A stretch of 64,000 nucleotides of DNA from a virus (IMGVR_UViG_3300042691_005581:13360-77359); one strand, 5' to 3'. Positions 10,629-62,611 are shown, numbered from the stretch's first letter. The notes: generated by a model from the sequence alone, not told the origin. Translations and numbers: made by a program.

Positions 10629-11068
10629 TAGCTGATCTCTGATTTGCCTTGGCCTAAGTTGTTAACATTGATATAGCCCGAACCTCTCCGGTCCATATCA
10701 ACTCCTGATTCAGCTCCGATATTCCGGCACAAATCTTGAAACCATTTGTCGACAATTTCTTCATCTGTTTCACCGTAATAACCTGCTAGTCTTAATTCTA
10801 CTATAAAAAGCTCGTTCCAGTCAAGTTCAAAAAATCCATTCTTAACATTGTCCTTATTGACTTTGGTATCCAATACAGCAATATAAGATTCATTGCGTTC
10901 GGTTGCTAACTCTTTTGGACTCAGTTTAGATAATCTTTCTGCTTCTGCGGCATCTGCAATTACTTTGGCAGCTCTTTCAGTAGCTTCCTGAAGTTTTTTT
11001 TCTGCTTCGACAGTAGCCTGCTCTAGTTTATCAATTCCGAATATTTTTTTAATAAATTTTTTCATCAT
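10628..11068 (-). CDS. Hypothetical protein
   Basis: Coiled-coil N-terminus and GFFELDWN motif; start placed at the ATGA overlap with the queE stop. Confidence 0.6.
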   Translation of the reverse strand: MMKKFIKKIFGIDKLEQATVEAEKKLQEATERAAKVIADAAEAERLSKLSPKELATERNESYIAVLDTKVNKDNVKNGFFELDWNELFIVELRLAGYYGETDEEIVDKWFQDLCRNIGAESGVDMDRRGSGYINVNNLGQGKSEIS

Positions 11069-11925
11069 GTACCCCACTCATTCTTAAACAATGGAACTTG
11101 TAAACGATCACTATATCGCAAGCCTGCTCGCATGGCCAAATCTGCCACACGTCGATTGTTTAGGGAATAGACACTTTCTACTCCACCAACTGGCATTAGA
11201 TATACATGACCTTTGAATCCGGCAGCACGATACGCACCGATAGCACATTCAGCATCTGCAAAGTCTTGTTCAGTAGCAATAACAAATTTTAGATATACAG
11301 TGCCTACAGTTTCATAATTGCAAACAACATCTGGTTTGATAGCATCGTCCCACGGTTCTCCGGAACATGGAAGTTTGGCACTAACTGAGAATGTAACTTC
11401 TCTTTCTAGCTTATGGTCTTGATTTTGCCACATACCTAAATATGTTTTAAATTCTTTTGTTAGACGCATAGTGCCGTTGGTTTCAAATGTAATCTCTTTG
11501 AGACCTGCCATCTTTGGATTATTCAGAAGTTCTGGATAGGCTTTTTGCCAACCTAACAATGGCTCACCTCCAGTGATAACCAAGTGCTCATCCTTCCACT
11601 CACCGTGCGGAATAATTTCCATAATACGATCTGCAATAGCATCAGTAGTCAGCATAGGACTTAGATCTTTAAATTCGGGCATCCAGCTGGCGTAGCTGTC
11701 ACAACCTGTACTAACTAGTGGTAACATCTTGTAGTCTGCATAGGGTGTAATCTTGTGAGCTTTTGCAATGTCTTCGGCTTCTGCACTCAATTCTCCGCGA
11801 GACATGCCAAACCCTTGACATTTAAAGTTACATCCAAATGTACGTAAGAAGACGGAAGGTACTCCCATGTACCTTCCTTCACCTTGAATACTGTAAAAAA
11901 GTTCTGATATTTTAATTTTATTCAT
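11065..11925 (-). CDS. queE: 7-carboxy-7-deazaguanine synthase (radical SAM)
   Basis: SELFYSIQGEG, FLRTFGCNFKC...GCDS (insert in the CxxxCxxC motif), ITGGEPLL, ETNGT; near folE. Confidence 0.88.
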   Translation of the reverse strand: MNKIKISELFYSIQGEGRYMGVPSVFLRTFGCNFKCQGFGMSRGELSAEAEDIAKAHKITPYADYKMLPLVSTGCDSYASWMPEFKDLSPMLTTDAIADRIMEIIPHGEWKDEHLVITGGEPLLGWQKAYPELLNNPKMAGLKEITFETNGTMRLTKEFKTYLGMWQNQDHKLEREVTFSVSAKLPCSGEPWDDAIKPDVVCNYETVGTVYLKFVIATEQDFADAECAIGAYRAAGFKGHVYLMPVGGVESVYSLNNRRVADLAMRAGLRYSDRLQVPLFKNEWGT

Positions 11926-12190
11926 AAATTCCTGACCATTGTTTTAATTTTTCGATCTTAGCCTGCTTGGCAGTGTTAAGACCTTCTTCTGTTATAATAC
12001 TATAAGATTTTAACAGATCTACCATAGCAAGTACATCCCCAATTTCACCTTCTAAGTGCTGTGCATTAGTCAACGGCTTACCGGGTTTAAAATTGTTTAA
12101 ACCAAATCGGTGACATTTACTTACTGCTTGAATTACTTCTGCACATTCCTCACTGAGGATGTTCATTACTTCGTGTAGTTTATTATCCAT
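11918..12190 (-). CDS. MazG-like nucleotide pyrophosphohydrolase
   Basis: EECAEVIQA..K and LEGEIGDV motifs. Confidence 0.75.
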   Translation of the reverse strand: MDNKLHEVMNILSEECAEVIQAVSKCHRFGLNNFKPGKPLTNAQHLEGEIGDVLAMVDLLKSYSIITEEGLNTAKQAKIEKLKQWSGIYE

Positions 12191-12644
12191 TATTTGCTCT
12201 TTCTGTTAGGTACGTTTCATTGTGTACCCATTTGTTGTTTACTAGGAAACCCCATTCTCTACGTTGTGGACCAGGCATGAACATTGTCCAGCAGTCTGTT
12301 CCTTCTTTAAGCTCAACACGGTGATAGCTATTAGCAGGGCAAATACGGAAGTGCCCAGGACCACGCCAATGCCGTGTTTCACTGATCTTGGCACCTTGTG
12401 AATCAAAGTTAGGAGTCCATTCATAATAACCACCTTTAAGTATTAGAGTAGCGTAAGGCCATGGATGATCATGTACATCATCTGGATCTGACTTAAGAAA
12501 CTTGTGTAAGAATACATTGAATGGAAATCGCTTCCTATCTTTAAGAAAGAGATAGTAACGTTCTAAGTAAGGTTCGCTGTTCACACGATCCATTACAATA
12601 CGTTTCCGATCTAGCAGTTCTAGAAGTTTAAGCAGAACCTTCAT
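12183..12644 (-). CDS. Cupin-fold protein
   Basis: LHKF..SD...HDHPW...LKGGYYE...HRVEL metal-binding cupin motifs. Confidence 0.75.
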   Translation of the reverse strand: MKVLLKLLELLDRKRIVMDRVNSEPYLERYYLFLKDRKRFPFNVFLHKFLKSDPDDVHDHPWPYATLILKGGYYEWTPNFDSQGAKISETRHWRGPGHFRICPANSYHRVELKEGTDCWTMFMPGPQRREWGFLVNNKWVHNETYLTERANNG

Positions 12645-12891
12645 CTTTGATTGCTTTCTTTTTACGAGTGGTAGTTTTTGCGGGAATTGCGCTTTCCGCT
12701 TTTAGTATAGCAGCTCTGACGTCTCTTGTCAATGCTTCGTCGTCCCATTCTAATTCAGTGCGACCGTCCGGGTATGTAGTCACAGTTAAATGACTGCCCT
12801 TTTCCACTTTGGGCAGAATAATTTTAGCAGAACCTGTAGTTCCGGGCATGTCCAAAATTGCACTGTCTGATTTCTTTTTACGTGTTGCCAT
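12628..12891 (-). CDS. Hypothetical protein
   Basis: AAGGA RBS; basic termini. Confidence 0.55.
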   Translation of the reverse strand: MATRKKKSDSAILDMPGTTGSAKIILPKVEKGSHLTVTTYPDGRTELEWDDEALTRDVRAAILKAESAIPAKTTTRKKKAIKDEGSA

Positions 12892-12903
12892 TATTTTTCC
12901 TTT

Positions 12904-13407
12904 TTAAAAAGGCCATTGATTGCTAGGAGCAGGCCTTGATTTTAATTTAACATTTTCTTCGATTACAGTACCGTCGTCCTCACATAGATCTACTTGATAC
13001 GGAGCATCGATTACTAGATATTCATCTTCGAGTTGCCAATCGTGCTCTGCATCAAATAACCAGGCAGCACCTGATCGTTCAAATTCTTCATTACCATCGC
13101 CTTCTAAATAACACCGCTTAATTTCTTCTTGTTCTTCTTCGCTAATGTCATCACTAAAATCGAACCAACAAGCATGTTGGTCATCTAATTCTGCACCCCA
13201 GCCGCAATCTGTTTTAGCATGGGCCTGCTCGTCTCCCTCGTAAGGCAAATTGCAGTCAAGTTCTTCTTCAACAAAGCCTTGTCCCCAACGATAGTGATCA
13301 TCAATGTTAAACCAACTGATACTACCGTCCGCATTTTCGCGGAACATTTCAATGTGCCAGCAAATGCTTTTCTTATGTAACGGTTTAATTAGATAAACTT
13401 TAGACAT
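12904..13407 (-). CDS. Highly acidic hypothetical protein (paralog of next ORF)
   Basis: D/E-rich 167 aa; KKS and D.YR motifs shared with neighbour. Confidence 0.65.
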   Translation of the reverse strand: MSKVYLIKPLHKKSICWHIEMFRENADGSISWFNIDDHYRWGQGFVEEELDCNLPYEGDEQAHAKTDCGWGAELDDQHACWFDFSDDISEEEQEEIKRCYLEGDGNEEFERSGAAWLFDAEHDWQLEDEYLVIDAPYQVDLCEDDGTVIEENVKLKSRPAPSNQWPF

Positions 13408-13910
13408 TAGTCTTCCTTGAAATCACTTACATTGCCATCTTCGTCTGCAATGATAATACGAATATTAGTTTCGTCGTCTTCGTTGGTAACTTCAATTGGG
13501 CCCCAGATATAAACTTCGGTATCTTCCAAGTACCAATCACCTTCATCTTCTAACGCATAAGCACCGTTTTCGTCAATAAATTCTTGTAACTCTTCAATTT
13601 CGTTGTCATCTTCGATGCCTTCAATTTCTGTATCACCCCAGCAACCGCCATCGAACATATCGATCATTTCGGAACTGATAATGTTGTTAGCTTCGCATGA
13701 ATACATATCTAAGCTGTCAGTTTTACCATCGCCGCCGGGTACTTGAACAAACTCAAACTCTGGAAAATTATCGTCTTCAGTTTCTACTCTGAAAGTACAA
13801 AAACGGTATCCGTCTTTAACCGTAATTCGCCCTGTGCCGTTGCGTTGAACATAGTGTTCATGCTGTTCGCATGATTTTTTATAGTGTGTTTTAACAATCC
13901 AAAATGCCAT
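13407..13910 (-). CDS. Highly acidic hypothetical protein
   Basis: Start reassigned to MAFWIV (GAGG RBS at end of folE); 167 aa, D/E-rich. Confidence 0.65.
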   Translation of the reverse strand: MAFWIVKTHYKKSCEQHEHYVQRNGTGRITVKDGYRFCTFRVETEDDNFPEFEFVQVPGGDGKTDSLDMYSCEANNIISSEMIDMFDGGCWGDTEIEGIEDDNEIEELQEFIDENGAYALEDEGDWYLEDTEVYIWGPIEVTNEDDETNIRIIIADEDGNVSDFKED

Positions 13911-13914
13911 AATA

Positions 13915-14613
13915 TTACCTCGGAGCAAAGTCTTGTTGCAATTTAATGTTATCAAAGAATTCTTTCTTTGTACTTTGATCGTCTTTAAATGCACCTTTTA
14001 ACACAGTAGTCTGTGTCAATGAACTATGTGCCATGATGCCGCGATTCTCACAGCATCCATGAACAGCCTGTACATAAACGCCTACGTCTGTTGCGTCTGT
14101 TGCTTTTTGGATTTCCCTAGCAATATCATTACAAAGTTCCTCCTGGAGAGTCCCTCGTCTTGCACACCACTGGGCGATTCGTGTGTACTTTGATAATCCA
14201 ATAAGTTTGTTAGCAGCCAAAATGCCAATATAAGCAACGCCACTAACGGGTTGGTGATGATGACTACACATACTGCGAAGCTCACTACGAACAACCAGCA
14301 TACCTTCGTAGCGGTCCTGCGAATCATTTGGAAATGCTGTTGCGTCTGGTGCTTGTTCATATCTACCTGCCATTATTTCGTTGAAATACATTTTAGCCAA
14401 CCGGCGTGCTGTACCTTTTGAGTTAGGATCATTTTCACGATCAATTAGCAATGTATCTAGCACTTGTTCAAATGCCGCAGTTGCTTCGTCAATTAGTTCT
14501 GGCAACACATTGTCATCAACATATTCGCTAATGTTGTCTCCTGCCCAGAAACGTTTGTTATCGCTACGCATTCTATTACGAATTACCTGCGATAGGTTCT
14601 TACTTGTATCCAT
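13915..14613 (-). CDS. folE: GTP cyclohydrolase I
   Basis: T..RLAKMY, SMCSHH, IGLSKY.R, LQEEL, HGCCENRG. Confidence 0.95.
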   Translation of the reverse strand: MDTSKNLSQVIRNRMRSDNKRFWAGDNISEYVDDNVLPELIDEATAAFEQVLDTLLIDRENDPNSKGTARRLAKMYFNEIMAGRYEQAPDATAFPNDSQDRYEGMLVVRSELRSMCSHHHQPVSGVAYIGILAANKLIGLSKYTRIAQWCARRGTLQEELCNDIAREIQKATDATDVGVYVQAVHGCCENRGIMAHSSLTQTTVLKGAFKDDQSTKKEFFDNIKLQQDFAPR

Positions 14614-14653
14614 TATAATTTCTCCGAGTTATTGTCGTGGATGACTTTTGTAC

Positions 14654-14683
14654 ATTGTAACTTTATTTAGGCAAGTTGGTCAA
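14654..14683 (-). promoter_or_regulatory. sigma70-type promoter TTGACC-18-TACAAT with nested TAAATA (14664-14669)
   Basis: Hexamers upstream of folE leader. Confidence 0.55.
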
Positions 14684-15469
14684 CCTCAGCAGTAAATTCT
14701 TTTTTACTGCGGAGTCTATTACGTTGAGATTTGCATCATGACATTCTGCATATCTTATTAATGCAGACGTGTCTTTAGGAAAACACATACCGCCAAATCC
14801 TAATGCGCCATCTGGACCTGGGACTCTAAAATGGCTATTTCCTAGTCGAGGATCTAATTGCACTAATTCTGCAATTTTATTATAATCTTCTCCTGTGTTT
14901 TTGCACAATTGAAATATCTCATTCATAAACACAACTTTGGTAGCTAAGAAACAGTTAATTGTATATTTGGCAAAACTTGCCTGTGCCGGTGTGCAATATT
15001 TTATATCTGTTAATAGTTTTTGTCCCATTCTAATAAGACGTTCTGCTTCTCTAATCCAAGCAGGAATTGAACCACCGATGATGGCAAATTTGCCATGTGC
15101 ATAATCTCTACTGGCATTTGCAGCCGTTAAAAATTCCGGAGCATGAACTAAATTTTTATGTTTTATTGATAAACGTTCGTATACGTTTGGAGGTGCAGTA
15201 GTTTTACTAATGATGACACCTGCAAAGTCTTTCAATTCTTCTAATACTGATTCGAGAATAGTAGTGTCGCAGCTTCCGTCATCTTTTGATGGGCTGGGTA
15301 CACATACAAATACTCCCTCACAATCTTCTAAATCTTTATAGGTATTAGGCAGTCCTTTTGGAGGATCAACTAATACCAATTCGCAAAATAAATCATCTAA
15401 ACTGTCACGAACAGCAGTACCTACAAATCCTAATCCTACGATTCCTATTTTTGTTTTTTCTTTAAACAT
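14663..15469 (-). CDS. UDP-glucose/GDP-mannose dehydrogenase family protein (short, lacks C-terminal domain)
   Basis: GLGFVG Rossmann motif, CVPSP, KTT.PP, PEFL, K...N.FLA.KV.F.NE, GFGGMCFPKD catalytic Cys. Confidence 0.88.
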   Translation of the reverse strand: MFKEKTKIGIVGLGFVGTAVRDSLDDLFCELVLVDPPKGLPNTYKDLEDCEGVFVCVPSPSKDDGSCDTTILESVLEELKDFAGVIISKTTAPPNVYERLSIKHKNLVHAPEFLTAANASRDYAHGKFAIIGGSIPAWIREAERLIRMGQKLLTDIKYCTPAQASFAKYTINCFLATKVVFMNEIFQLCKNTGEDYNKIAELVQLDPRLGNSHFRVPGPDGALGFGGMCFPKDTSALIRYAECHDANLNVIDSAVKKNLLLRLTNLPK

Positions 15470-16545
15470 TATTTTAAATTCTCCAATAATTTATTTGCAC
15501 TAAAGAATCGTTCAGTTAGATCGGCAACTTGTTTGCGAATAGTAGGAACCCTGCTATGATAATTGTCCATGTGTTGCATAATAGCAAAACATAGATTAGG
15601 CCTATGTTCTTCATATGCTGCAAACGATTCAGTCCATTTACTAGGATACTTAAAAGTATCATAATACATTTCAGTATAACTTAGTCTGTCCGGCACCATA
15701 GGAATAGCATCTACTAACGCACCTTCGTAGCAACTAATGCCCAAAGTTTCTTGTAGATTAGCACTAAACACTAACTTAGCTTCGCCTAGCAAATTATGAT
15801 ATTCATTTTTAGTCAGTTGTTGATCCTGACAAACAACAAATTCATACTGTGGCAAATGTTCTTTTAGATTGCGGAAGATCTCAACTTGTTTCTCTGGAGC
15901 AATACGATGCGGGAACAGAATAAGATCACGCTTAGGCATGTTCTTGTATGCTGTCAAAGTATTGTCCATATACTCCATAGGCCATCCTGTTCGTACAATA
16001 TCACCATTAGCCATATAGCGAATACGACCTGTTCGAGCATCGACTTTTAATAAATTTTCTAGAAACAAATTGATATGAAAGTCTGTAGCAAAGTAGTTGT
16101 GATCAATAGCATGGAAGAAGCTAGCCTCGGCATTACGTACCCAAGGAGCATCCCCGATAAGACGTCCTAGGAAGTCTTGGGGATCATAACTGCCAGCATG
16201 CCAAAGAGCGTGGATAGTTACAGGAATTCCGAGAAGCCCGGCCATGTATTTGAGATTGATGATACCAGGGTGCCAAGCATCAGTGAATACAAAATGATCA
16301 CCTGGGCAAACGGCTCCGTTGCAAAATAGCCTACCCATGTGTTCAACCTGTGCTGCCTTATATATGTTGGTACCGCCAAAATTAAGGAAAGCACCAGGCG
16401 TAGTGGCAGCAGGAATATCTGTAGGGCCAGAGATAATTTGAACATTGTGTCCTGCCTTTTTAAGTAGAGAAGGAACGTGAAGTTTCCACTCACCTGTATA
16501 GCGAGTGGAAACAGCCTCTAAATCAATTAGAAAAACGTTCGCCAT
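15469..16545 (-). CDS. GT-B fold glycosyltransferase
   Basis: HRIAPEKQ and ETLGIS..EG (ExFG...E-like) donor-binding motifs; start reassigned to MANVFL. Confidence 0.8.
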   Translation of the reverse strand: MANVFLIDLEAVSTRYTGEWKLHVPSLLKKAGHNVQIISGPTDIPAATTPGAFLNFGGTNIYKAAQVEHMGRLFCNGAVCPGDHFVFTDAWHPGIINLKYMAGLLGIPVTIHALWHAGSYDPQDFLGRLIGDAPWVRNAEASFFHAIDHNYFATDFHINLFLENLLKVDARTGRIRYMANGDIVRTGWPMEYMDNTLTAYKNMPKRDLILFPHRIAPEKQVEIFRNLKEHLPQYEFVVCQDQQLTKNEYHNLLGEAKLVFSANLQETLGISCYEGALVDAIPMVPDRLSYTEMYYDTFKYPSKWTESFAAYEEHRPNLCFAIMQHMDNYHSRVPTIRKQVADLTERFFSANKLLENLK

Positions 16546-16765
16546 TGTTTCGATTTTCGTAGCGTGGGTTCTTACCCTTGTATCCTTCACGCGGCTTACC
16601 ACGATTTGAAAAATACCGATACTCTTGAGAGCGATATAAGTCTGCAGGATTAAAATCTAATAGATTAAATCGGCAGTGGTCGAGCCATGCTTCTAAGTCG
16701 TCGAAGATTTTAGATACTTCGGGTTTCATGCGGAGAGTTTTTTGAATATAGGCAGGTTGTGCCAT
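16523..16765 (-). CDS. Hypothetical protein
   Basis: AAGGA RBS; within modification cluster. Confidence 0.6.
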   Translation of the reverse strand: MAQPAYIQKTLRMKPEVSKIFDDLEAWLDHCRFNLLDFNPADLYRSQEYRYFSNRGKPREGYKGKNPRYENRNNGERFSN

Positions 16766-16774
16766 GTTTTTTCC

Positions 16775-17149
16775 TTAATTGGAAGTTGTTGATAAAGTTG
16801 GAATATACTCTACAATACCATCTGATTCGCCGTCTTCGGAGACTACAATCTCGTAAGATCGATTAGTTCCGTATGAGGGAATTAAATGGTTCTGCAAAAT
16901 ATCTGTTGCTATCATTTCGCAGGATTTATGATTTTGATTACCTGCTTTGATAAAATCTTGTAATGCCCACTTGACAAGGAAGAATTCTAATTCTCTATCA
17001 AGATGAGTGACTGAAATTTTTACTTCAACTTTGAACATGTGACGATGTTCGTTTTCTAAAAACTGAATACGAGGATCAATTGATCCTGCGTTCGGATAAA
17101 AGTGAAATCCTTGAAATTCAGTACGAATTTTAATATATGTATTTGTCAT
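16775..17149 (-). CDS. QueD-like T-fold protein, DpdL-like (putative CDG decarboxylase)
   Basis: LENEHRHMF (LxxxHRHxF instead of QueD CxxxHGH), SCEMIA, VSEDGE. Confidence 0.7.
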   Translation of the reverse strand: MTNTYIKIRTEFQGFHFYPNAGSIDPRIQFLENEHRHMFKVEVKISVTHLDRELEFFLVKWALQDFIKAGNQNHKSCEMIATDILQNHLIPSYGTNRSYEIVVSEDGESDGIVEYIPTLSTTSN

Positions 17150-17664
17150 TTGATAATCTTATCGTTTTTATATTGTGACCAGTCTGTAAAATTTTTACGA
17201 TCCATTAGTGTGTGCAAACTGTGACTCCACACACCAGGGTTAGTTGCATTAAAATCTTTGTCGTCAATTTTAATCATCGTATTATAATTCCAAAGTTTTA
17301 CATATGGAATAGGCACACGAATTTGAGGAATAAAATTTGAATGTTCGTTTAGACTGCCATCGTGAAATTCTTCCACTGCACTTAGTGGAATGTCAAGACT
17401 GCATAGATAACCTTTTTCTAGGAAGAATTCGATCATATCTTCCCAGGCCTTCCAACCGTCGTAATCATTGAAGGCAGGATTGAAGCTGTGATTTGCACCA
17501 AAGAAAATATGCTCGCAACCTTGCAAGTTTATAGCAATAGTTTCTACAGGTTGAACACCTACTACAAACAGAGTTTTGAGTCCGTATGCAGGAGTATGTT
17601 CAATTTCGGTGCCAGTAAAGAATATCACTTCTTCTTTAATACCAGTATCATAATCTCGTTTCAT
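17146..17664 (-). CDS. Hypothetical protein between DpdA-like and DpdL-like genes
   Basis: 172-aa ORF; G.EIEHTP, HIFFGANHSF, NPGVW.H. Confidence 0.65.
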   Translation of the reverse strand: MKRDYDTGIKEEVIFFTGTEIEHTPAYGLKTLFVVGVQPVETIAINLQGCEHIFFGANHSFNPAFNDYDGWKAWEDMIEFFLEKGYLCSLDIPLSAVEEFHDGSLNEHSNFIPQIRVPIPYVKLWNYNTMIKIDDKDFNATNPGVWSHSLHTLMDRKNFTDWSQYKNDKIIK

Positions 17665-17670
17665 ATGTTA

Positions 17671-17699
17671 ACTATAGCAGACTTTATATTAGATGTCAA
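17671..17699 (-). promoter_or_regulatory. sigma70-type promoter TTGACA-17-TATAGT (leaderless transcript)
   Basis: -10 box lies 6 nt upstream of the ATG at 17664. Confidence 0.7.
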
Positions 17700-19320
17700 T
17701 ACTTTTTTCTAATGCACGTAGCTCGTCATCGTCCGGATTTTCTAAATCGATTTCTGCAGATTTGGTAACCGTTTCGATTTCAAACAGTCCATTGAAAGTA
17801 TTTTGGGCAGGTCCACCTTGCAAACGAGATCCTTCCAAACTGCGTAAAAATGGGCCAGCATCGTCGATAATGGCAAATGCTTCTTCTTTGGATTTAGTAT
17901 TAAATAGATCTTCGATAAAAGAACTAAAATACAAAATGTTACGTGGAACCCAATCACTGTACTCGTCGCTCATATCGCTAGCTTTGACCTTCTTCCAATG
18001 TTTCCAAGTTAACTTATCTTTAGTCTTTGCAATTTCAATGTCCATTAACTGTTGAGCACGTTGTACAGCAACAATATGACATTCTACATTGTGACCCATC
18101 ATTAATGCATAGGCAAAACTATCCCAAGATGTTTTATTAGGAATCTTACCTAGTTTATTAAGTCTAGGCACAACATGATAGTGTTCTGTATTCAAGTGAT
18201 CAAACTTAGCACCATTTAACTCTGCATCAGTTTTGCGTTTGCCTAAATCATAATAGGCAATGTCTGCCATTGTTAAGCGTCTGCCGATTGACGATTCGAA
18301 TGGGAATGGAATGTCGCTTCCTGCAAGTGCTTTGTTGTCTGGGGCCTTGTCCATAATAACACTCCACCTTTTTGGCGTGTGGACTGCGTTTGTGTAGACA
18401 AGTCCGTGCGCTGTTGCGATGAACGGTGAGGCGCAGTCAAAAGATATGGTAAGCTCTTCATTGATATGTTTCCTAATTTGTCTTTGAATTAACGTTAAGT
18501 AACAACTCCAGTCAAGTTGCGCTGTACCCAAGAAGTGGATCCAGTTTTTGCCCTTCAGCAAACCATCTTCTCTAAGCGTCATCATACGCTTGAGAGTAAT
18601 ATCCATCTTGCACATGTTAGCACCACCAAAGGCCCAACCTTCTGCTTCACGCCCTGCATACTTGCCTTTAGGGTCGCTAAATTCTTTTACACCTGCATAC
18701 CACTTTTCAGCAGTGTCCCAATCACCGCCTTGAAGAACGTTAAGCCATTTAGTATGACCTAAACGATTCATTAGGAAGTAATCGTTATTGAATCGTGTCT
18801 TGTCTAGACAGTCTTCAAATGTTTTCAATCCAGTCTTAGGACTGTGAATGTGATCACATGCCCAAGTAGGCACGTCTAGCATCATTGACCAATCAGCAGT
18901 TAGTTCTAACCACTCAAGAATCTTTTGACGAGTTTTAGTAGCTTCTTTGCCTTCAAAGTCGAGCCAGTCAAACTTAAGAACGCCCTTACCAATTTGGTAT
19001 CCGCCGGAGTCTCCCAGAATCATTGTATTCCCGCGATCACGTTGTTGGATCATTGACTCCTGCGTCATACTCTTTTGTAAGTCTAACTGTGCGTGACCCG
19101 CAGAGTACAGACCATACTTATATGTGAAATATCCTTCTTCAGGATTTAGAAAGTTCATACCTTCAATGCCACGATCAAATCCTGCTGGAATTCGATCGTC
19201 AGAAATAAACTTTTCAAGCCTTTGTTTAGCGATGTATGTACTATAGAAACTACTAATTGCTGGCAAATACACAGCATAGTCTTTCTGTAGTGGTGTTAGG
19301 TTAAGTTGTTGTTTGCTCAT
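17689..19320 (-). CDS. TGT-family guanine transglycosylase, DpdA-like (7-deazaguanine insertion into DNA)
   Basis: DSGGYQ, MMLDVP, VLQG, GWAFGG, IHFLG, SFDCASP TGT motifs; clustered with folE/queE and replication genes. Confidence 0.8.
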   Translation of the reverse strand: MSKQQLNLTPLQKDYAVYLPAISSFYSTYIAKQRLEKFISDDRIPAGFDRGIEGMNFLNPEEGYFTYKYGLYSAGHAQLDLQKSMTQESMIQQRDRGNTMILGDSGGYQIGKGVLKFDWLDFEGKEATKTRQKILEWLELTADWSMMLDVPTWACDHIHSPKTGLKTFEDCLDKTRFNNDYFLMNRLGHTKWLNVLQGGDWDTAEKWYAGVKEFSDPKGKYAGREAEGWAFGGANMCKMDITLKRMMTLREDGLLKGKNWIHFLGTAQLDWSCYLTLIQRQIRKHINEELTISFDCASPFIATAHGLVYTNAVHTPKRWSVIMDKAPDNKALAGSDIPFPFESSIGRRLTMADIAYYDLGKRKTDAELNGAKFDHLNTEHYHVVPRLNKLGKIPNKTSWDSFAYALMMGHNVECHIVAVQRAQQLMDIEIAKTKDKLTWKHWKKVKASDMSDEYSDWVPRNILYFSSFIEDLFNTKSKEEAFAIIDDAGPFLRSLEGSRLQGGPAQNTFNGLFEIETVTKSAEIDLENPDDDELRALEKSIDI

Positions 19321-19666
19321 CTTTACTCAATATTATTGTTGCTTTTAATTGTTCAGCGGCCCGTTTCATATTTTCATATGCTGCCTTAACAGCAGGATGA
19401 CTTTCTGACAATTTTTCCAATGCCGCTTCTTCAGATATTTTATTCATTGCCCATGATATTGCAGATTGGGCACTGCTGCTTAGACTTATAGTGGTATAGC
19501 TGGCAGCTATTTGCACCCAGTTACTTCCACTCCATACTTGCAAATCATTTCCATGAATACGGACCATACCCTGCATTGGATTATCTATGTTAGTAGGAAT
19601 GTAAGGCATTGGTGATGTACCACCCCCTACCTCAATAAACGCACCACCGGCTATATCTTTTATCAT
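19301..19666 (-). CDS. Hypothetical protein
   Basis: Coupled between clamp and DpdA-like genes. Confidence 0.6.
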   Translation of the reverse strand: MIKDIAGGAFIEVGGGTSPMPYIPTNIDNPMQGMVRIHGNDLQVWSGSNWVQIAASYTTISLSSSAQSAISWAMNKISEEAALEKLSESHPAVKAAYENMKRAAEQLKATIILSKDEQTTT

Positions 19667-20397
19667 GCCTGTGCTGGAATAATATACTTGTAAGTTGCAA
19701 TACCACTATCCATGGTGATCTGCATAGCACCTTCGTTTGAGAAACTAACTTTTGCATTATTAGAATCTGCAATCTTAAGGATGCTCAACACACTACTTAC
19801 CGGCCATGTCCATGCTTTATTTAGGTTACCAGTAACTCCACTTGCAAAAATAAATTCACCACCGTGTGTGCTTTGATCACCGAATACAAATTTCAAATTA
19901 CCGTTATCTGTCTTGGCAAGGAATGTAGTGTGCTCATTATTTGCACTGGCTTGAAAGTTAAACCGTTGAACAGATTGCAGTGTAGGCACTACTTCTACAT
20001 CCCATTTAACACCTTTAAACTTGATAGTTTTAAGTTTTTCATTGATGATGTCAGTGTTCATAAAACGATAGTCGTTTTTAAAATCGCCAGTCTTATTTTC
20101 AAAATGCAGTCCTACTGGAATAGTGTCGCCGTTTCTATCAGCAGTAATAACTTCGATAGTTGCATCTTCTTTGTATTCTGGGCAATCCAAATGATACTTT
20201 AGTTTGTTAAGTTGTGGCATGCCGAATACACCAATCATATCTGGGTTTGGATTAGTAGTCTCTGCATACATGATAACGCTACGGTCATCGGCCATTGAAT
20301 CGATCGCTGTTTTCTTTTCATCACCAGTAATCTTAACAATGTTAAGAAAACCTAAATTGTGTGTATGCGATACGATATCTTGTAAAATGTCTTTCAT
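19663..20397 (-). CDS. Putative DNA sliding clamp (gp45/PCNA-like)
   Basis: About 245 aa alpha/beta protein ending KYIIPA, directly downstream of the polymerase, whose C-terminus (TFGSLFTFE) resembles a clamp-binding peptide. Confidence 0.65.
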   Translation of the reverse strand: MKDILQDIVSHTHNLGFLNIVKITGDEKKTAIDSMADDRSVIMYAETTNPNPDMIGVFGMPQLNKLKYHLDCPEYKEDATIEVITADRNGDTIPVGLHFENKTGDFKNDYRFMNTDIINEKLKTIKFKGVKWDVEVVPTLQSVQRFNFQASANNEHTTFLAKTDNGNLKFVFGDQSTHGGEFIFASGVTGNLNKAWTWPVSSVLSILKIADSNNAKVSFSNEGAMQITMDSGIATYKYIIPAQA

Positions 20398-20474: not shown

Positions 20475-23144
20475 TTATTCGAATGTAAAAAGAGAACCGA
20501 ATGTGTTGGTCTGAGTTGTGGAATCTAAATCCCATTCTAACACACCGATTAAATTATCAATTTTGTTATTGATAATAGTTGCCTCCATCTCTGCGTGGTT
20601 AAATGGTAATTCTTGAAACCATTTAGGCAATCGTAATTCATCGACTGGATATGCTACTGAAGTGTATCCTAACGGATTTTCTTTTACCTTACAAACAATA
20701 ACTTTCATGCCGTCGACAATACCCATCGAGTATTTGTCACCATTCATGCGTTTTAAGGTATTCCAGTTAATAGCTGCTCGAACGTGTCCGGGCATGTTTG
20801 CTTTGCCAGCTTTTACTTCCTTGGCTTGATATTCAGCAATGTTGTTGGCACGTTTTGGACTTCCTTTTTCCCATCCTGGCCGGGCCTTAAATTCAGTTCG
20901 GAATTCGCTAATACGGTCTAGAATTTCTTTTTCTTGAGCACCATTAAGCACCTTAGTTAGAATTTCTGTTAAGAATTCTTGCATAAATTCTGGAGTATCT
21001 GAACGCTTCAAATCTAATCCCATAGCCTTGATCTTGCCCGGTTTGCCATCTAAGTCCTGACGTTTTCCTTCCTTGTCATAGTAAAGAATTGCGTATCTTT
21101 TCTTAGTCATGTAGATACCTTTGATTGCTACAAATTCTCTACCAGCTTTGATAACTTCTCCTCGACTTTTAGGACAGTGAAATGAGTCCAACATAAATTG
21201 AGAAAATGTTCCGTTAACTTCATTAGCGATAGAGTCATATAGTTGAACAACGGTATCTTTGGTCCAAGGAATTTCTCCCTTATCGATTTCTTTCCTTAAG
21301 GAAGTATAAGCACTAAAATATGCAGAGTCAGTGTCACCGTAGATAATAGCCTTACCTACATGATCATATTCTCCAGTAATTACTTCGTTAATTTTTGAAG
21401 CCATGTGTCTAGCAATTGCACGACCGGTAAGAGTGGTAGATTGACCAATACGGTTATCGAAGAAGCGGCATCCTGCATTAAGAATAGCACCATACAAACT
21501 GTTCAAGTTAATTTTCTTAACTAGCTGACGTTTGTCCCAGTATTCTTCTTCAATTTTATTACCGGCAGTAATGGCTGCTTTAAGTTTTGCCTGCATCTCT
21601 TTACGCTCAGCATACCAACGTTTCAACAATCCTGGAATAACACCTTCGTGTTCGTGTGTGAAAATAGTACCGTTGGCACTGAGCATCCAGGGCTTGCCGC
21701 TGTTAAAAATTAACTCAAATATTTGAGCGCCACTCATTACATCAGTTTCGCCGTTTTCCCAATCAATAATGATGTCGTGCGTCTTGTCTTGACTCATTAC
21801 AAATTCATATTCGTTGGCTCCAAATTTGCCTTCCCATGCTGCTGCAAAACTATTTCCCTTGGCAATTTTAGTTTCAATTTCTGCTTTGGTATAGTCCTGA
21901 CGCAACTGTCCAACAATAGTCTCTGGACCCATATTCAATGCACGAATAACTGAAGGATACAAACTGTTAATGTCCATTGAGCCAATCCAATCATGCAGAC
22001 CTTTTTTAGGATATGCAACATATGCACCTGCGGCTTGAGTATCAACAAGGTCGTCCCTGTTCTTACGACTAGGAACAATCATTCCACGGTGATGTGCTTC
22101 ATTTACAATGGCCTGCTCTGTAACTGCTACAGCACCCATAGTGGTCTGTAACAACACTGTACATTCATGTGCTAGTGTATTTGCTAGGTCAATAAATTTT
22201 AATTTATTATCTAGTTTATTCAGCAATGCAGTATCTTGTCTGTTGTATTCGATAAACTTTTTAAAATCATTGTTATACAATTGATCCAATGTGCCTTCGT
22301 AAACAGTTTTACTTTCGCCTACTTCCATTTCTCCAATGGCATCCAATCGGTATGTGTGGCGTTCTTCATAGGTGTATTTGCGGTACAGCTCGAGACTGTC
22401 CAGATGAACACGACCAACCAAATCATAAGTAACAGCCGCTTTTCCATATTTTTCATACTCCCTTTTCTTAGGAAATTGATCCCATAGGCAAAATCTACGA
22501 GTATCTTCTTTGCTCAACACTTTAGTAACTCGATTGACAGTATAAGGCATATCGAATCCTTCACTGTTCCAACCGCTTAAAATATCAGCATCTTGAATTA
22601 AGTTTAGAAATGTATCTAACATGTCTGCTTCGTTATCAAACAGAATTGTGTTAGGAAAATCTTTAATTTGTTCCTGTGCCTGTTCCATAGTTAGTGTCTT
22701 GGGCGGAACTGCAAGACATACTAATGTGTCCAACCATTGTAGATGAACGGCAATGGCAGTAATTGGCATGAAGGCATCATCGGGTGATGCATATCCACGT
22801 TCTGGATCGAAGTCTACCTCAATATCCCAAAACGCTACGTTTAGTTTTGGAGGCTCTTTGCCTAGATAGTTTTCTTCTAATGTACGAAAGACTACGTTAA
22901 TATCACTTTCGAACAGTCGTTGATTACTGTGGATTCTTTGTTCTTTTTGAAATTCTTTGTGGTTTTTACATACCACTTTTGACAGGCTTTCGCCGTGAAT
23001 CGATCTATATTTTCCCTTAGGGTCAGGGTAGTAAAAAATATATCTTGCAGGGTACTCCTGATATATTCTTCCTTTTTTTGGATCCCGTTCGACAATCTTA
23101 ATGACGTCGTTGTCTTTATTCCAAATGGCGTCGACATAACTCAT
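20475..23144 (-). CDS. Family B DNA polymerase
   Basis: Exo DIE, GWNSEGFD, YNRQD; pol DINSLYPS, K..LNSLYG, YGDTDS, KKRY. Confidence 0.98.
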   Translation of the reverse strand: MSYVDAIWNKDNDVIKIVERDPKKGRIYQEYPARYIFYYPDPKGKYRSIHGESLSKVVCKNHKEFQKEQRIHSNQRLFESDINVVFRTLEENYLGKEPPKLNVAFWDIEVDFDPERGYASPDDAFMPITAIAVHLQWLDTLVCLAVPPKTLTMEQAQEQIKDFPNTILFDNEADMLDTFLNLIQDADILSGWNSEGFDMPYTVNRVTKVLSKEDTRRFCLWDQFPKKREYEKYGKAAVTYDLVGRVHLDSLELYRKYTYEERHTYRLDAIGEMEVGESKTVYEGTLDQLYNNDFKKFIEYNRQDTALLNKLDNKLKFIDLANTLAHECTVLLQTTMGAVAVTEQAIVNEAHHRGMIVPSRKNRDDLVDTQAAGAYVAYPKKGLHDWIGSMDINSLYPSVIRALNMGPETIVGQLRQDYTKAEIETKIAKGNSFAAAWEGKFGANEYEFVMSQDKTHDIIIDWENGETDVMSGAQIFELIFNSGKPWMLSANGTIFTHEHEGVIPGLLKRWYAERKEMQAKLKAAITAGNKIEEEYWDKRQLVKKINLNSLYGAILNAGCRFFDNRIGQSTTLTGRAIARHMASKINEVITGEYDHVGKAIIYGDTDSAYFSAYTSLRKEIDKGEIPWTKDTVVQLYDSIANEVNGTFSQFMLDSFHCPKSRGEVIKAGREFVAIKGIYMTKKRYAILYYDKEGKRQDLDGKPGKIKAMGLDLKRSDTPEFMQEFLTEILTKVLNGAQEKEILDRISEFRTEFKARPGWEKGSPKRANNIAEYQAKEVKAGKANMPGHVRAAINWNTLKRMNGDKYSMGIVDGMKVIVCKVKENPLGYTSVAYPVDELRLPKWFQELPFNHAEMEATIINNKIDNLIGVLEWDLDSTTQTNTFGSLFTFE

Positions 23145-55260: not shown

Positions 55261-56085
55261 TTATTCAGAAAACAATTGTCTAGCTTCTTCTCTTACATCT
55301 TCAAACGGAATAATATCTAATACTCTGTCTCGAACGCTATTGATAATAGTGGTTCTTGCAGCATCATAGGACAATCCTTTGGTTTGCAAATAGTATATTT
55401 TATCTTCACTTATATATTCTGTTACACAACCGTGACTAGATCGTGTGTTGTTGCAGTCAGAATATATATCAGGTTTTGAATGGCAACGCCCATCTTCCCC
55501 AGTAATCAAGTTTATACATTCAATATTTGCTTCGCTACCTTTTGCGTCTACATCTAACACTGTCATTCCTTGAAACACTGTTTGACTGTTTTTATCCGCA
55601 ATTCCCACTATAAATTGATTGCTTGCGGAATTAGGGTGCTTGTGAATAACTTTTGTAATAATTTCGGTGTCGCCACCTACGCCATTGCTCATAAGACCGT
55701 AGGTATTAAACTCAGCACCTTCTTCTAAATAAACTTGAAAAATATGCTTATTAAATTTACCATTTTTAGAAAATATTCCTAAATTAATTCCAGCGCCCAC
55801 TTCTAAATGTATATCATATAGAAAAATTTGCTGTAATTTGCTGTCAGCTTCGTTGAGAATAACTAGATCTAATTTTGCATCTGCTTTGATGTCAATTTTT
55901 AAATGTTTAGCTAACAATTCCCGCTCTGTGGGATTTTGTCTCAACACCATCATATTTGTTTGTTTTTCGGCCAGCTCTACTGTGCTAGCATCGATTAACT
56001 TAAATTCTTTCCCAAAATATTGTTCTGGGGTAAATTGCCAATCTGGATCTCCCTTTTCGGCTTTAAGAAAACTGTGAATAGCCAT
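55261..56085 (-). CDS. SufB/SufD-like beta-helix protein
   Basis: EIITK..H, VFQG, HSKP, SSHG, YYLQTKGL....A; start reassigned to MAIHSF. Confidence 0.8.
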   Translation of the reverse strand: MAIHSFLKAEKGDPDWQFTPEQYFGKEFKLIDASTVELAEKQTNMMVLRQNPTERELLAKHLKIDIKADAKLDLVILNEADSKLQQIFLYDIHLEVGAGINLGIFSKNGKFNKHIFQVYLEEGAEFNTYGLMSNGVGGDTEIITKVIHKHPNSASNQFIVGIADKNSQTVFQGMTVLDVDAKGSEANIECINLITGEDGRCHSKPDIYSDCNNTRSSHGCVTEYISEDKIYYLQTKGLSYDAARTTIINSVRDRVLDIIPFEDVREEARQLFSE

Positions 56086-56788
56086 CTTCGATGATCCTTT
56101 TATAAAGTTCGGTGTTCCCTTGTTCTCTAATTTCACCATCTACAAGAATATGTACATGTGTAGGAACAACCATATCTAACAATTTTTGACTGTGTGTAAT
56201 TAGAATCATAGAATTTTTATTACTGGCATAACTGCTCAATACTGCTCCTATGACTGATAACTCTTCATCATCCATTCCTTGATCAATTTCATCTATAATG
56301 GCCAATGTGGGATTTAATAACAGCATCAACAGTAGTTCATTTTTTCTAAAGTCTAAATCAGACATATCGTCAAAACTCATTATAGCATTGCCGTGATCTT
56401 CTGCTAACTCTAGCATATCTACTAATACTTGATAATCCCTTTCTAAATCATGATTTGATCTAACATCATTGTGTGCTCGTAAGCAACTTTTTGCCAATTC
56501 TAAATTAGTCAATCCAACTAACTCAGGCGGTCCCTGAAAAGACACGTACATGCCCAATTTAGATCTGTCTTCGGCATCGAGATTTTTTAAATTTTTTCCT
56601 TTGTAATGTATAGAACCTTCTGTTTGTATTATCGAAGGATGTCCTGCTATAGCGTGTGCAAGACTGCTTTTACCTGATCTCCTTGGTCCTAAAATTGCAT
56701 GAATTTCGCCAGGATTTACTTCTAGTGAGATATTGCTTAATAGATCTTTAGCATCTATTACTGCGGATAAGTTTTTTATTGTTAGCAT
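56063..56788 (-). CDS. SufC-like ABC ATPase (divergent)
   Basis: GEIHAILGP..SGKS, FQ.P, IIDEIDQGMD, ITH, P..VHIL.DG. Confidence 0.85.
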   Translation of the reverse strand: MLTIKNLSAVIDAKDLLSNISLEVNPGEIHAILGPRRSGKSSLAHAIAGHPSIIQTEGSIHYKGKNLKNLDAEDRSKLGMYVSFQGPPELVGLTNLELAKSCLRAHNDVRSNHDLERDYQVLVDMLELAEDHGNAIMSFDDMSDLDFRKNELLLMLLLNPTLAIIDEIDQGMDDEELSVIGAVLSSYASNKNSMILITHSQKLLDMVVPTHVHILVDGEIREQGNTELYKRIIEDGYSQFS

Positions 56789-58386: not shown

Positions 58387-58865
58387 TCAGCTTTTTTACT
58401 AATTGACCAGGACCCATCTTTGTTGTCTTCCCATGACAGTGTATCGCCTTCTTTCCATCCTTGCAATTTTAGCATGTCTTCTGGTAAGGGTAGAATAGTT
58501 TCGCCAGTTTCTGGATCTTCTTCTACGGTGACTGTCCATCTAAGAGGCGCCAATTTAACTGACTTTATATTCATAGTACGCATAGCACGCCAGCCGTTAG
58601 CTTCGGTACTCCATACGGTGATTAACTCGTAATTGATTGTGTTTTGGTGTGCTTCAACAATATCTTCAGCTAGCATTTTTCCCTGTATTGGTAGGAGATC
58701 TTCTCTAAGAGTACATTGCATAGCCCTATCTTCTCCGTTAACTTTGGTAAATTCTACAACGCATTGATATTCAGTTAACAGAGCCATAGTAGCGGCATGT
58801 CGATCTTCTACAGTTAATTCACTATTAACAAAATTTAATTCGGGCGGAGTATATTGATGTTCCAT
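58383..58865 (-). CDS. WYL/Sm-like domain fused to AbrB/MazE-like domain
   Basis: V.FTKVNGE.R.M.CTL...VW......WR; C-terminal ILPLPEDML...GW.EGD.L. Confidence 0.6.
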   Translation of the reverse strand: MEHQYTPPELNFVNSELTVEDRHAATMALLTEYQCVVEFTKVNGEDRAMQCTLREDLLPIQGKMLAEDIVEAHQNTINYELITVWSTEANGWRAMRTMNIKSVKLAPLRWTVTVEEDPETGETILPLPEDMLKLQGWKEGDTLSWEDNKDGSWSISKKAD

Positions 58866-59800
58866 TATAGTTGACCTTTAAAATATTCGATAGTTTTAAT
58901 CAAGCCATGTTCCAAATTGATCTTAGGTTCCCAATTGAGCATTCTTTTAGCCACATCGATGTCTGGCCGGCGCTGTCTTGGGTCATCTTGCGGTAGCGGC
59001 TTTTGTAATATCTGACTATTACTTCCAGTTAGTTCAATGACTTTGTGTGCCAATTCCCACATGGTGAACTCGCCAGGGTTGCCAATATTCACAGGTCCGA
59101 TAAAGTTGTCGTCTGTGTGATTCATCATTGCTTGCATAGCATCCAAAAGATCGTCAACATAGCAGAAGCTTCGAGTTTGCATACCGTCACCGTAGATTGT
59201 AATGTCTTTGCCTTGCAGTGCTTGAACGATGAAATTACTCACAACTCTGCCGTCATTTACAGCCATTCTTGGGCCATAAGTGTTGAAAATACGAACGATT
59301 TTAGCCTTAACATCGTGAGTGCGGTAGTAGTCCATAAACATCGTTTCTGCTGCACGTTTACCCTCATCGTAGCAACTACGGATACCAATTGGGTTTACGT
59401 TGCCCCAATATGTTTCAGGTTGTGGATGTACCTGCGGATCACCGTAAACTTCACTAGTCGATGCTTGCAGAATTTTAGCACCTGTACGTTTGGCTAGGCC
59501 TAACATATTGTAAGCACCTAACACATTAGTCTTCATTGTTTGAATTGGGTCCCACTGATAATAGAATGGGCTTGCAGGGCAAGCAAGATTGTAAATTTCA
59601 TCAACTTCTACATACAACGGAAAACAAATATCTTGACGAATAACTTCAAAACGTTTATTATCCAGCAGATGTACAATGTTGTCTTTGCTGCCTGTAAAAT
59701 AATTATCTACGCACAAGACATGATGTCCTTCGTTAACTAGTCTATCACAAAGGTGTGAGCCTAGAAATCCTGCGCCGCCGGTAACTAATATTTTTTTCAT
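58865..59800 (-). CDS. UDP-glucuronate decarboxylase (UDP-xylose synthase), extended SDR
   Basis: [53 protein letters not shown]. Confidence 0.93.
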
Positions 59801-60282
59801 GTTCTATCTTTCTTAATAAGTTCGGGAGAATATTGGGGTAGTGAAACTTCAGTTTTATTTTTTTTAGAATTTTCTAATTTAGCAACTCTATCTCTAAGCT
59901 CGCTTGATGAATAGATATGCTGTCTTTTATGATAATGTAATTCAATTTCGTTGTCAATACACCATTGCTTGCCGGTAAAGTCTCTATTTAGATATTCATC
60001 GCTAAGAAATCGAATATGTATAGTTTGAGTTTGAAGTAATTGTAATAAATCGTGCTCAGTTTCGTAGATAAGAATTTCATCTACATACTTGCAAGCCTGT
60101 AGCTGTACATATCGTTCATATGCGCTTTGCACAGGTTTATTTTTAATTCCTGGTCGATCAATAGTTGGGTCAATTTGTAACGCTACTATTAGGTAGTCGC
60201 ATAATTGTTTTTCCATTTTAAGCATAGTAACATGCCCTGCATGTAGTAGATCAAAACTACTACAATTAAAACCTATTTTCAT
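59797..60282 (-). CDS. Cytidylyltransferase (TagD-like), second paralog
   Basis: [28 protein letters not shown]. Confidence 0.88.
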
Positions 60283-60767
60283 TCTATATCCTTAGCTGAT
60301 AAAATTGGATTACCTTGAATAGGCCACTCAATCCCATAATTGTTCCAATTAAAATTTTCTTCTTCTTCTTTATTATACGGTCTATCAACTATATATTGTA
60401 CAACCGCAGTTTCTGATAGTACCAAGTACCCGTGTGCATATTGCGGGGGTATTAGCAATCCTTTGTTTTCGTTTAATTCTATGCCAAACCATTTACCTGT
60501 TTTAGGTTCTAATACTGCATCAAATATTCTACCATATACGGGCATTACAAGTTTAAATTGATTTTGCCTGTGCATTCCTCGTAACACATTTTTAGATGAT
60601 GTTGCTATGTTTAATTGACGAAATGGCCATCCATCTCTTATCGGCCCACGCATATTATCGTTGGTAATCTTCCAAAGTTCGCAAAAATCACCACGGGAGT
60701 CTTTATGTTTAGTATGTTCGATTATTTCTAAACCGGGCAATAACTCTCCATAGATAGTTTCGCTCAT
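60279..60767 (-). CDS. rmlC: dTDP-4-dehydrorhamnose 3,5-epimerase-like
   Basis: DSRG.F.E, VLRGMH, AHGY.VLS, Y, I.WP, LSAKD. Confidence 0.85.
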   Translation of the reverse strand: MSETIYGELLPGLEIIEHTKHKDSRGDFCELWKITNDNMRGPIRDGWPFRQLNIATSSKNVLRGMHRQNQFKLVMPVYGRIFDAVLEPKTGKWFGIELNENKGLLIPPQYAHGYLVLSETAVVQYIVDRPYNKEEEENFNWNNYGIEWPIQGNPILSAKDIE

Positions 60768-60904
60768 TGCTTGTCCTCTGGCACAACAATACCATATTGT
60801 TTATAAAGCCAATGTATGTATGCTTCGATATCTTTATTAGGATACGGGTATGCTCTATATGCTATAGTTACTTTTTCTAGCCAATCTTTATCAGTTAGTT
60901 GCAT
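60764..60904 (-). CDS. Small hypothetical protein (46 aa, not in ORF track)
   Basis: MQLTDKDWLEKV...WLYKQYGIVVPEDKQ; overlaps both neighbours. Confidence 0.5.
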   Translation of the reverse strand: MQLTDKDWLEKVTIAYRAYPYPNKDIEAYIHWLYKQYGIVVPEDKQ

Positions 60905-62082: not shown

Positions 62083-62083
62083 A

Positions 62084-62611
62084 TTAGCCTTCGTAAATTG
62101 CCGAGTTGCCTGCGTGTTCAAACACTTCAGCTGATTTTAGTCGAACACCTGCACCTACTGGATAACGTGCTTCAAACACACGACCGTCTGGATGAGTCCA
62201 ACCACGGCCTTCTTGATATGCAGTTAAGATTTCGTTCATAACGCGATAGACCAATTGAGCAAACATTTCACAACCTACTCCGTCTACGATGCGTAGGTCA
62301 ATGATGCCCATGTTTTTAAAACCGCCTTGAATTCGATTTAGTTCTACAAATGTATTGCGCTCTGGGTCATCCTTGGCAATTACCGTGGTGTGATCGAACT
62401 GCCATTCACTCCACTCTTTAAATGCTTTGAGCCCGCCAAAGTCCATGACCCAATTGCGGTCATCTAATGTTTCAGATTCAAAAATTAATTTGATACCAAG
62501 TGAGTACCCGTGTAACATAGCACAATGACTATGCACTGACCGCCACTGTCTAAAACAGCATGACAGCCCTCTGTCGTTACCGTATGTTTTTGTTGAAAGA
62601 TATTTTGCCAT
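62084..62611 (-). CDS. queD: 6-carboxy-5,6,7,8-tetrahydropterin synthase
   Basis: HCAMLHGY, WVMDFG.LK, FDH, CEMFA, VFE...NSA.Y. Confidence 0.88.
   Translation of the reverse strand: MAKYLSTKTYGNDRGLSCCFRQWRSVHSHCAMLHGYSLGIKLIFESETLDDRNWVMDFGGLKAFKEWSEWQFDHTTVIAKDDPERNTFVELNRIQGGFKNMGIIDLRIVDGVGCEMFAQLVYRVMNEILTAYQEGRGWTHPDGRVFEARYPVGAGVRLKSAEVFEHAGNSAIYEG

Follow-up and report, generated by a model that had tools for sequence, protein, structure and literature searches.

Introduction

To our knowledge, eight 7-deazaguanine derivatives have been described in phage DNA and none of them carries a sugar, and the DNA bases that are known to bear sugars are the pyrimidines 5-hydroxymethylcytosine (hmC) and 5-hydroxymethyluracil (hmU). 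A close described counterpart of the locus reported here is the system of Cellulophaga phage phiST, in the DNA of which all G is replaced by deoxy-7-deazaguanosine (dDG), and which relies on FolE, QueD, QueE, a DpdL protein with the signature LxxxHRHxF and DpdA3, a remote transglycosylase of the tRNA-guanine transglycosylase (TGT) fold, without QueC (PMC10516641). A corresponding set of proteins is encoded in a 64,000-nucleotide stretch of viral DNA (IMGVR_UViG_3300042691_005581:13360-77359, hereafter the window), which also lacks QueC and where, as in phiST, a MazG and a cupin gene are found nearby. Whereas the phiST cluster has no glycosyltransferase (GT) and leads to plain dDG, the window cluster adds a GT and two further proteins, u172 and u80; in addition, its DpdA belongs to another subfamily, the profile of which (A1) misses the phiST protein and finds that of phage ACP17 only at 1e-9. 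We propose, with about even confidence, that the window carries a QueC-less, DpdL-type module for 7-deazaguanine in the DNA of a jumbo phage, that its integral, QTMAN-related GT most likely attaches a sugar to the deazaguanine, and that a UDP-glucose dehydrogenase (UGD)-like protein and a UDP-glucuronate decarboxylase (UXS) act as accessories.

The window GT resembles QTMAN (GTDC1), the mannosyltransferase of queuosine tRNA (PMC11755703), and the bacterial PF12038 proteins in being a predicted enzyme of the GT-B/GT4 type tied to a 7-deazaguanine nucleoside in nucleic acid. In contrast to the window GT, the genomic partner of which is a DNA-type DpdA, QTMAN uses the cyclopentenediol of queuosine in tRNA as its acceptor, and this could not be made by the window pathway. 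The T4 alpha- and beta-glucosyltransferases, which act on hmC, are, as predicted for the window GT, phage GT-B enzymes encoded beside a base-replacement pathway, and the presumed logic is also shared, namely that a sugar is placed on a modified DNA base after replication and counters host defence. However, the base in the window system is a purine without a hydroxymethyl acceptor, and no sequence relationship was detected between the window GT and the T4 enzymes. Finally, the bacterial Dpd systems (DpdA, DpdB and DpdC with restriction genes) combine a TGT-like DpdA that inserts 7-deazaguanine with nuclease-like neighbours in chromosomal islands, which is also the arrangement of the alphaproteobacterial islands described below, although DpdB and DpdC were not seen and the partners are DpdL, the GT and QueD.

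Results

A QueC-less 7-deazaguanine gene cluster

Coordinates below refer to the window unless a relative is named, and all window genes discussed lie on the minus strand. The co-oriented run is headed by a family B DNA polymerase (PolB, 20475..23144; Pfam DNA_pol_B, 2.3e-37), which is 51% identical to the PolB of phage PA5oct, and a sliding-clamp-like protein of 244 residues (19663..20397), which has no Pfam match but whose homologue in phage Phosso is annotated as a sliding clamp. The genes that follow have the bounds given in a preliminary description made from the sequence alone, which had read them as encoding DpdA/TGT-like, DpdL-like, GT, UGD-like, FolE, cupin, MazG-like and QueE proteins. 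Comparison with Pfam, NCBIfam and PHROG, together with motifs and predicted fold, confirmed the run and most of its names, the exception being the UGD label, as that protein lacks the C-terminal UDP-binding domain. The view of the run as a DpdA/DpdL 7-deazaguanine cluster without QueC is likewise borne out by the fold and motifs of DpdA, the motif of DpdL and the presence of FolE, QueD and QueE.

FolE, the GTP cyclohydrolase I (13915..14613), is clearly recognised by both Pfam (4.9e-40) and NCBIfam (1.3e-40). QueE (11065..11925), the radical SAM synthase of 7-carboxy-7-deazaguanine (CDG), matches the NCBIfam QueE models at approximately 1e-14, below their cut-offs, and is homologous to the annotated QueE of PA5oct, ACP17 and BUCT-ZZ01. 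QueD is encoded apart from these, at 62084..62611, as a divergent QueD/PTPS protein of 175 residues (Pfam PTPS, 2e-12; NCBIfam QueD, 1.4e-8), in which the QueD motif CxxxHGH appears as CAMLHGY with the last His changed to Tyr. The QueD alleles of relatives fall into two identity classes, of ~40% and ~90%. No QueC was found in the window contig or in the 99%-complete relative G008, and the pathway therefore ends at CDG or at 7-deazaguanine (DG).

The 124-residue protein at 16775..17149 is assigned to DpdL, a QueD-like protein of the T-fold and the proposed CDG decarboxylase; it matches phrog_17812 and is homologous to the DpdL of phiST and ACP17. Its sequence LENEHRHMF fits the DpdL signature LxxxHRHxF described by Cui et al. 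(PMC10516641), which replaces the CxxxHGH of QueD, and in the window contig the protein co-occurs with FolE, QueD, QueE and DpdA in the absence of QueC.

A DpdA-like transglycosylase of the TGT fold

The 543-residue DpdA-like protein (17689..19320) has no match in Pfam, including PF01702, or in PHROG, NCBIfam or the sequences of the PDB. A profile built from 99 homologues, none of which belongs to a family (0 of 99), again matched neither a family nor a PDB entry. Its AlphaFold2 model has a predicted local distance difference test (pLDDT) score of 89.8, and all 50 of the 50 PDB matches listed for it by Foldseek are TGT structures (E 3e-6, probability 1.0, target-normalised TM-score ~0.5). Within the 99-sequence alignment the motifs GDSGGYQ and SFDC are conserved, with no variation at D104, S105, G107 and D295 and little or none at Q109; the aspartates of the two motifs presumably correspond to D102 and D280 of the Zymomonas mobilis TGT. 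The model and motifs together identify the protein as a predicted new TGT-fold subfamily outside PF01702, the homologues of which form 869 clusters at 50% identity.

Homologues of the protein adjoin QueE in PA5oct and QueF, QueC and FolE in Vibrio phage 2.275.O. The PA5oct homologue is 42% identical to the window protein and is part of the same DpdA-GT-DpdL-QueE run, and PA5oct DNA has been shown to resist enzymes with G in their recognition sites, the modified G not being identified there (PMC12191111). Fold, motifs and gene context thus suggest that the DpdA-like protein exchanges guanine for 7-deazaguanine in DNA.

The glycosyltransferase and its relation to QTMAN

The GT (15469..16545), the true start of which is an internal ATG, is a protein of 358 residues with an E-x7-E motif, and it is assigned to the GT4 type of GT-B enzymes. 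The window protein has no Pfam match of its own; among 31 homologues, four match PF00534 (best 5.5e-6) and two match PF13692 (2.5e-6), and a search of the PDB with the GT profile reaches the GT4 enzyme WlaC at 0.024. Both glutamates of the motif, E266 and E274, as well as R214 and K219 of the Arg/Lys phosphate-binding motif in the C-terminal domain, are invariant in alignments of 26 diverse sequences with 30-89% identity.

A profile-profile comparison in hhalign related the GT to 20 bacterial PF12038 proteins with a probability of 98.6 and an E-value of 1e-15. When single sequences were used as templates, these 20 proteins gave a median score of 72 (59-102), compared to a median of 19 (15-36) for 25 generic GT4 enzymes, and the confidence is low where the alignment with the PF12038 proteins extends into the N-terminal domain. 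Common to the GT and the QTMAN relatives are the C-terminal motifs PHR..(E/D)K.PE, FS(A/T)xL..G(I/L)..E and IPxxPDRL(S/A)YxE. These comparisons place the GT closer to the relatives of QTMAN than to generic GT4 enzymes and mark it as a distant relative of the QTMAN family which, judged by the N-terminal domain, is not a member. A prediction of the complex between DpdA and the GT returned a median score of 0.00.

Linkage of the glycosyltransferase to DpdA and DpdL

The linkage of the GT was followed in 80 related IMG/VR loci, and the GT was found next to DpdA or DpdL in 80 of 80, the order being DpdA, u172, DpdL, u80, GT. Across these loci the GT is 76-82% identical, as compared to 31-91% for DpdA and 32-90% for DpdL. 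The GT also adjoins DpdA or DpdL, in differing gene orders, in the six cultured lineages that have the GT module, namely the PA5oct-like phages, Phosso, the T4-like ACP17, X1/BUDD, BCSR5 and the cyanophage BUCT-ZZ01. It is absent from the DpdL phages phiST, RHph_I1_18, Bakedbeans, MA9V-3, D479 and Ahp1 and from the QueC/QueF-type Vibrio phage, and the PA5oct GT, when used as a query, has no match in IMG/VR.

The same association is present in prokaryote genomes, where an A1-family DpdA is adjacent to the GT in 24 of 30 loci and DpdL in 22; of the six loci without an adjacent A1 DpdA, one has DpdL, QueE and FolE and the other five are on contigs that are short or truncated. Compact GT-DpdL-DpdA-QueD islands occur in Magnetospirillum, and chromosomes of the Roseobacter group have GT-DpdA islands that are similar. 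Of the three annotated alphaproteobacterial islands (L122:8330-14215, L128:9381-15329 and L114:7635-14315), the first two include DpdL, and a QueD/PTPS gene is present in two of the three. The Magnetospirillum island L122 is flanked by a gene for an LA2681-like HEPN protein and a CoiA-like nuclease gene, and the islands L128 and L114 carry proteins of 537-585 residues with no assigned family. The islands resemble the phage module recast as a bacterial system of modification and restriction.

The GT is therefore part of the DpdA cluster, as the preliminary description had supposed, being adjacent in all related loci whose flank is long enough, in several unrelated phage lineages and in bacterial chromosomes. 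The tightness of this adjacency, along with the overlap of the two genes in several bacterial loci, would also fit a GT-like protein that is a non-catalytic structural partner of DpdA, comparable to QTRT2 for QTRT1 or DpdB for the bacterial DpdA. However, the E-x7-E motif, Arg214 and Lys219 do not vary over the 26 diverse sequences, and the GT stays ~78% identical where the DpdA alleles range over 31-91%, which argues against a co-evolving interface, so that we consider a purely structural role highly improbable.

The UGD-like and UXS genes

Directly after the GT in the window, as well as in the 99%-complete G008, lies the gene of the UGD-like protein (14663..15469), which at 268 residues is truncated and consists, according to Pfam and NCBIfam, of the NAD-binding and central domains only. 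The GxGxxG Rossmann motif and the catalytic Lys, Asn, Cys and Asp are kept, with the segments GFGGMCFPKD and KYTINCFLA aligning to the structure 4a7p. The UDP-binding domain PF03720 was found neither in the window contig nor in seven relatives, G008 among them. A split UGD gene was ruled out, as there is no open reading frame (ORF) for a C-terminal domain downstream or elsewhere, and homologous ORFs of ~260-300 residues recur in relatives. The gene is present in 27 of the 80 related loci in three alternative positions, all of which are inside the module bounded by PolB and QueE.

The second sugar-nucleotide gene (58865..59800) encodes a short-chain dehydrogenase/reductase which phmmer aligns with human UXS1 over residues 2-310 at 1e-120 and 406 bits, against 146 bits for the next-best family, and which is identified by this comparison as a true UXS. 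Its best NCBIfam match, to dTDP-glucose dehydratase, was ruled out by comparison with the PDB. None of the first five large relatives has a UXS orthologue, and neither UXS nor the UGD-like protein is encoded in any of the six complete cultured phages with the GT module. The two genes nevertheless tend to be found together, as the UGD-like gene is present in four of five large UXS-bearing contigs versus one of five large UXS-less ones. In a second set, of 80 UXS loci, QueD is just upstream of UXS in 61.

The location of queD and uxs together at 58.9-62.6 kb, noted in the preliminary description, was confirmed for both genes. The further proposal of a single pathway in which UGD would be followed by UXS finds no support in that form, given the patchy distribution of both genes, the missing UDP-binding domain and the existence of other possible users of the sugar among GT1 and GT2 proteins. 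Similarly, the expectation that the GT, ugd and uxs would all co-occur with DpdA is met for the always adjacent GT, whereas the UGD-like and UXS genes are variable, though they co-occur with each other.

The UGD-like protein and UXS could feed other GT1 and GT2 enzymes that act on virion proteins or the host envelope rather than the deazaguanine GT, the position of the UGD-like gene being merely a hot spot for accessory genes. The UXS-bearing relatives G006, G008 and G009 indeed encode a protein of ~1,140-1,590 residues with GT1 and GT2 domains, besides small GT1 and GT2 proteins, and no GT1/GT2 proteins of those kinds were found in the UXS-less G001 and G002. A candidate user of UDP-xylose is this Glycos_transf_1 plus Glycos_transf_2 protein, which is located at G008:46025-48544, G009:129721-132984 and G006:150976-152199 and of which the G008 and G009 versions contain two GT1 domains. 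A distance of 2-4 kb separates the UGD-like gene of G006 from genes for a GT2 and a GT1 protein, and the lack of both sugar genes in the six cultured phages points in the same direction. On the other hand, the UGD-like gene directly follows the GT in two genomes and lies inside the PolB-QueE module in 27 of the 27 loci that have it, QueD and UXS are neighbours in the majority of UXS loci, and the incomplete contigs G007 and G010 have UXS and the UGD-like gene with no GT1/GT2 match. On balance, we place such a separate glycosylation just short of an even chance. The UGD-like protein and UXS look like a co-occurring accessory pair, the user of which could be either the core GT or other GTs.

Neighbouring genes and the source of the window

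Between DpdA and DpdL lies the gene of u172 (17146..17664), a conserved protein of 172 residues that holds this position in nearly all of the 80 related loci with an upstream flank and has a homologue directly upstream of the ACP17 DpdA (6.6e-16). It belongs to no family in Pfam, PHROGs or NCBIfam, and no annotation was found among 6,504 homologue matches; a weak Atlas lead (0.91) points to the C-terminal domain of saccharopine dehydrogenase. It may be one more part of the module that has not been recognised so far. The gene of the small basic protein u80 (16523..16765; pI 9.4) overlaps the GT start and immediately precedes the GT in almost all of the 80 related loci. Closer to QueE are a cupin (12183..12644; phrog_4786 at 6e-41, a PHROG named 'cysteine dioxygenase'), which is present in most of the 80 related loci, and a small MazG-like NTP pyrophosphohydrolase (11918..12190; Pfam MazG, 2.8e-6).

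The module of relatives additionally includes variable genes for a phosphoribosyltransferase, a PfkB-family kinase, a pair of GFO/IDH/MocA and alcohol dehydrogenase (ADH) proteins (L033:12122-12703, L020:13277-13888, L064:15587-16351 and L033:7072-8837) and 2-oxoglutarate oxygenases. The first three of these are hints of steps on nucleotides or in sugar oxidation that differ from phage to phage.

The surroundings of UXS are also variable. A cytidylyl/adenylyltransferase-like gene and an RmlC-like 3,5-epimerase gene, recognised by Pfam and NCBIfam at 59797..60767, are found in 28 and 7 of the 80 UXS loci, respectively. Between these sugar genes and QueD is a gene for a DadA-like D-amino acid dehydrogenase (60895-62121; NCBIfam 6e-137, just under the cut-off), which is present in 12 of the 80. 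SufBD-like and SufC-like (ABC ATPase) genes at 55261-56788 are near UXS in 8 of the 80; they may encode a pair for Fe-S cluster assembly, from which the radical-SAM QueE could benefit.

The window makes up the final 64 kb of one viral contig of 77,359 bp, for which CheckV estimates a completeness of 17%, and relatives reach 353 kb at 99% completeness; the window is therefore a fragment of a jumbo phage, its source being a giant freshwater phage of ~350 kb or more. Two giant ORFs of ~2,500 and 2,300 residues are present on the 77-kb fragment, at L130:3-7523 on the plus strand and at 48251-55153 of the window. No near-identical record was found among the cultured phages searched, and metagenomes hold more than 8,000 homologues of the GT, the best 120 of which are 75-89% identical, which together indicate an abundant group of uncultured phages.

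Discussion

In the mechanism that we propose, FolE, QueD and QueE would convert GTP to CDG by the established pathway, and DpdL would decarboxylate CDG to 7-deazaguanine, as has been suggested in the literature. The TGT-fold DpdA-like protein would then put the DpdL product in the place of guanine in DNA, as its fold, motifs and gene context imply, and the GT4-type GT, with a nucleotide sugar as donor, most likely glycosylates the deazaguanine, probably once the base has been inserted into DNA. The truncated UGD-like protein and UXS would be accessories of a subgroup, outside the conserved module, and would at most tailor or supply the donor there; having no UDP-binding domain, the UGD-like oxidase might act on the sugar after its transfer.

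Several observations weigh against this proposal. First, 7-deazaguanine has no hydroxyl group, and hence no ordinary acceptor site is evident. Next, the AlphaFold2 model of the GT, built from a shallow alignment, is poor (pLDDT 53.5), with only the N-terminal beta-alpha-beta part moderately confident, and the fold of the GT is therefore assigned from sequence evidence; at the same time, the QTMAN_N model (PF12038) finds no match in the 31 GT members at E<=1 or in the genome at E<=10. Furthermore, since phiST DNA consists fully of dDG in the absence of a GT, the GT has to be regarded as an added step that is not needed for insertion. Finally, the UGD-like and UXS genes are missing from most relatives. 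The acceptor problem has several possible solutions: the sugar could be joined as a C-glycoside to C7, which is nucleophilic, or as an ester to CDG, or else the acceptor could lie outside DNA and be a precursor or queuosine-containing tRNA.

The last of these amounts to a different explanation, in which the GT is part of the deazaguanine module but acts on the free base, a nucleotide precursor or queuosine in host tRNA, and no DNA is glycosylated. The cyclopentenediol of queuosine does offer ordinary hydroxyl acceptors, which would suit both the QTMAN affinity of the GT and the lack of a hydroxyl in 7-deazaguanine, while steps on the nucleotide level are hinted at by the genes for a phosphoribosyltransferase and a PfkB kinase that relatives carry in their module and by a xanthine-guanine phosphoribosyltransferase inside the BUCT-ZZ01 cluster. 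Nevertheless, it is DpdL and DpdA, rather than tRNA genes, that the GT accompanies, its neighbours in the bacterial islands include nuclease-like and HEPN genes as would be expected for DNA modification and restriction, and a base glycosylated at N9 could not serve as a substrate of the transglycosylase. An acceptor other than DNA thus appears unlikely to us.

Returning to glycosylation of the base in DNA, a more specific reading can be put forward tentatively, at somewhat less than even confidence: the module may be the source of the first purine in DNA to bear a sugar; the QTMAN-related GT4 enzyme would then glycosylate 7-deazaguanine, perhaps through a C-glycosidic bond at C7 or an ester bond to the CDG carboxylate; the sugar might be tailored by UXS and the UGD-like oxidase in the freshwater subgroup; and in Alphaproteobacteria the same module would provide the modification part of a restriction-like island. 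A literature search found no sugar-bearing or glycosylated 7-deazaguanine in DNA, and Cui et al. mention no glycosyltransferase (PMC10516641). New in the present analysis are the controlled comparison with QTMAN, the bacterial islands, the firm assignment of UXS, the domain loss of the UGD-like protein and the recognition of the UGD-like and UXS genes as accessories.

When DpdA and DpdL of ACP17 were expressed in E. coli, no dDG was detected (PMC10516641), for which the missing GT is one possible reason. As six lineages with the GT module are in culture, the prediction can be tested at once. If it is true, a glycosylated deazapurine would add a new class to the known DNA hypermodifications, with a bearing on restriction, on CRISPR and on defences of the glycosylase type, as well as on sequencing chemistry and enzyme tools. 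The kinship of the GT with QTMAN further suggests that the enzymes glycosylating deazaguanine nucleosides in tRNA and those acting on them in DNA may belong to one lineage.

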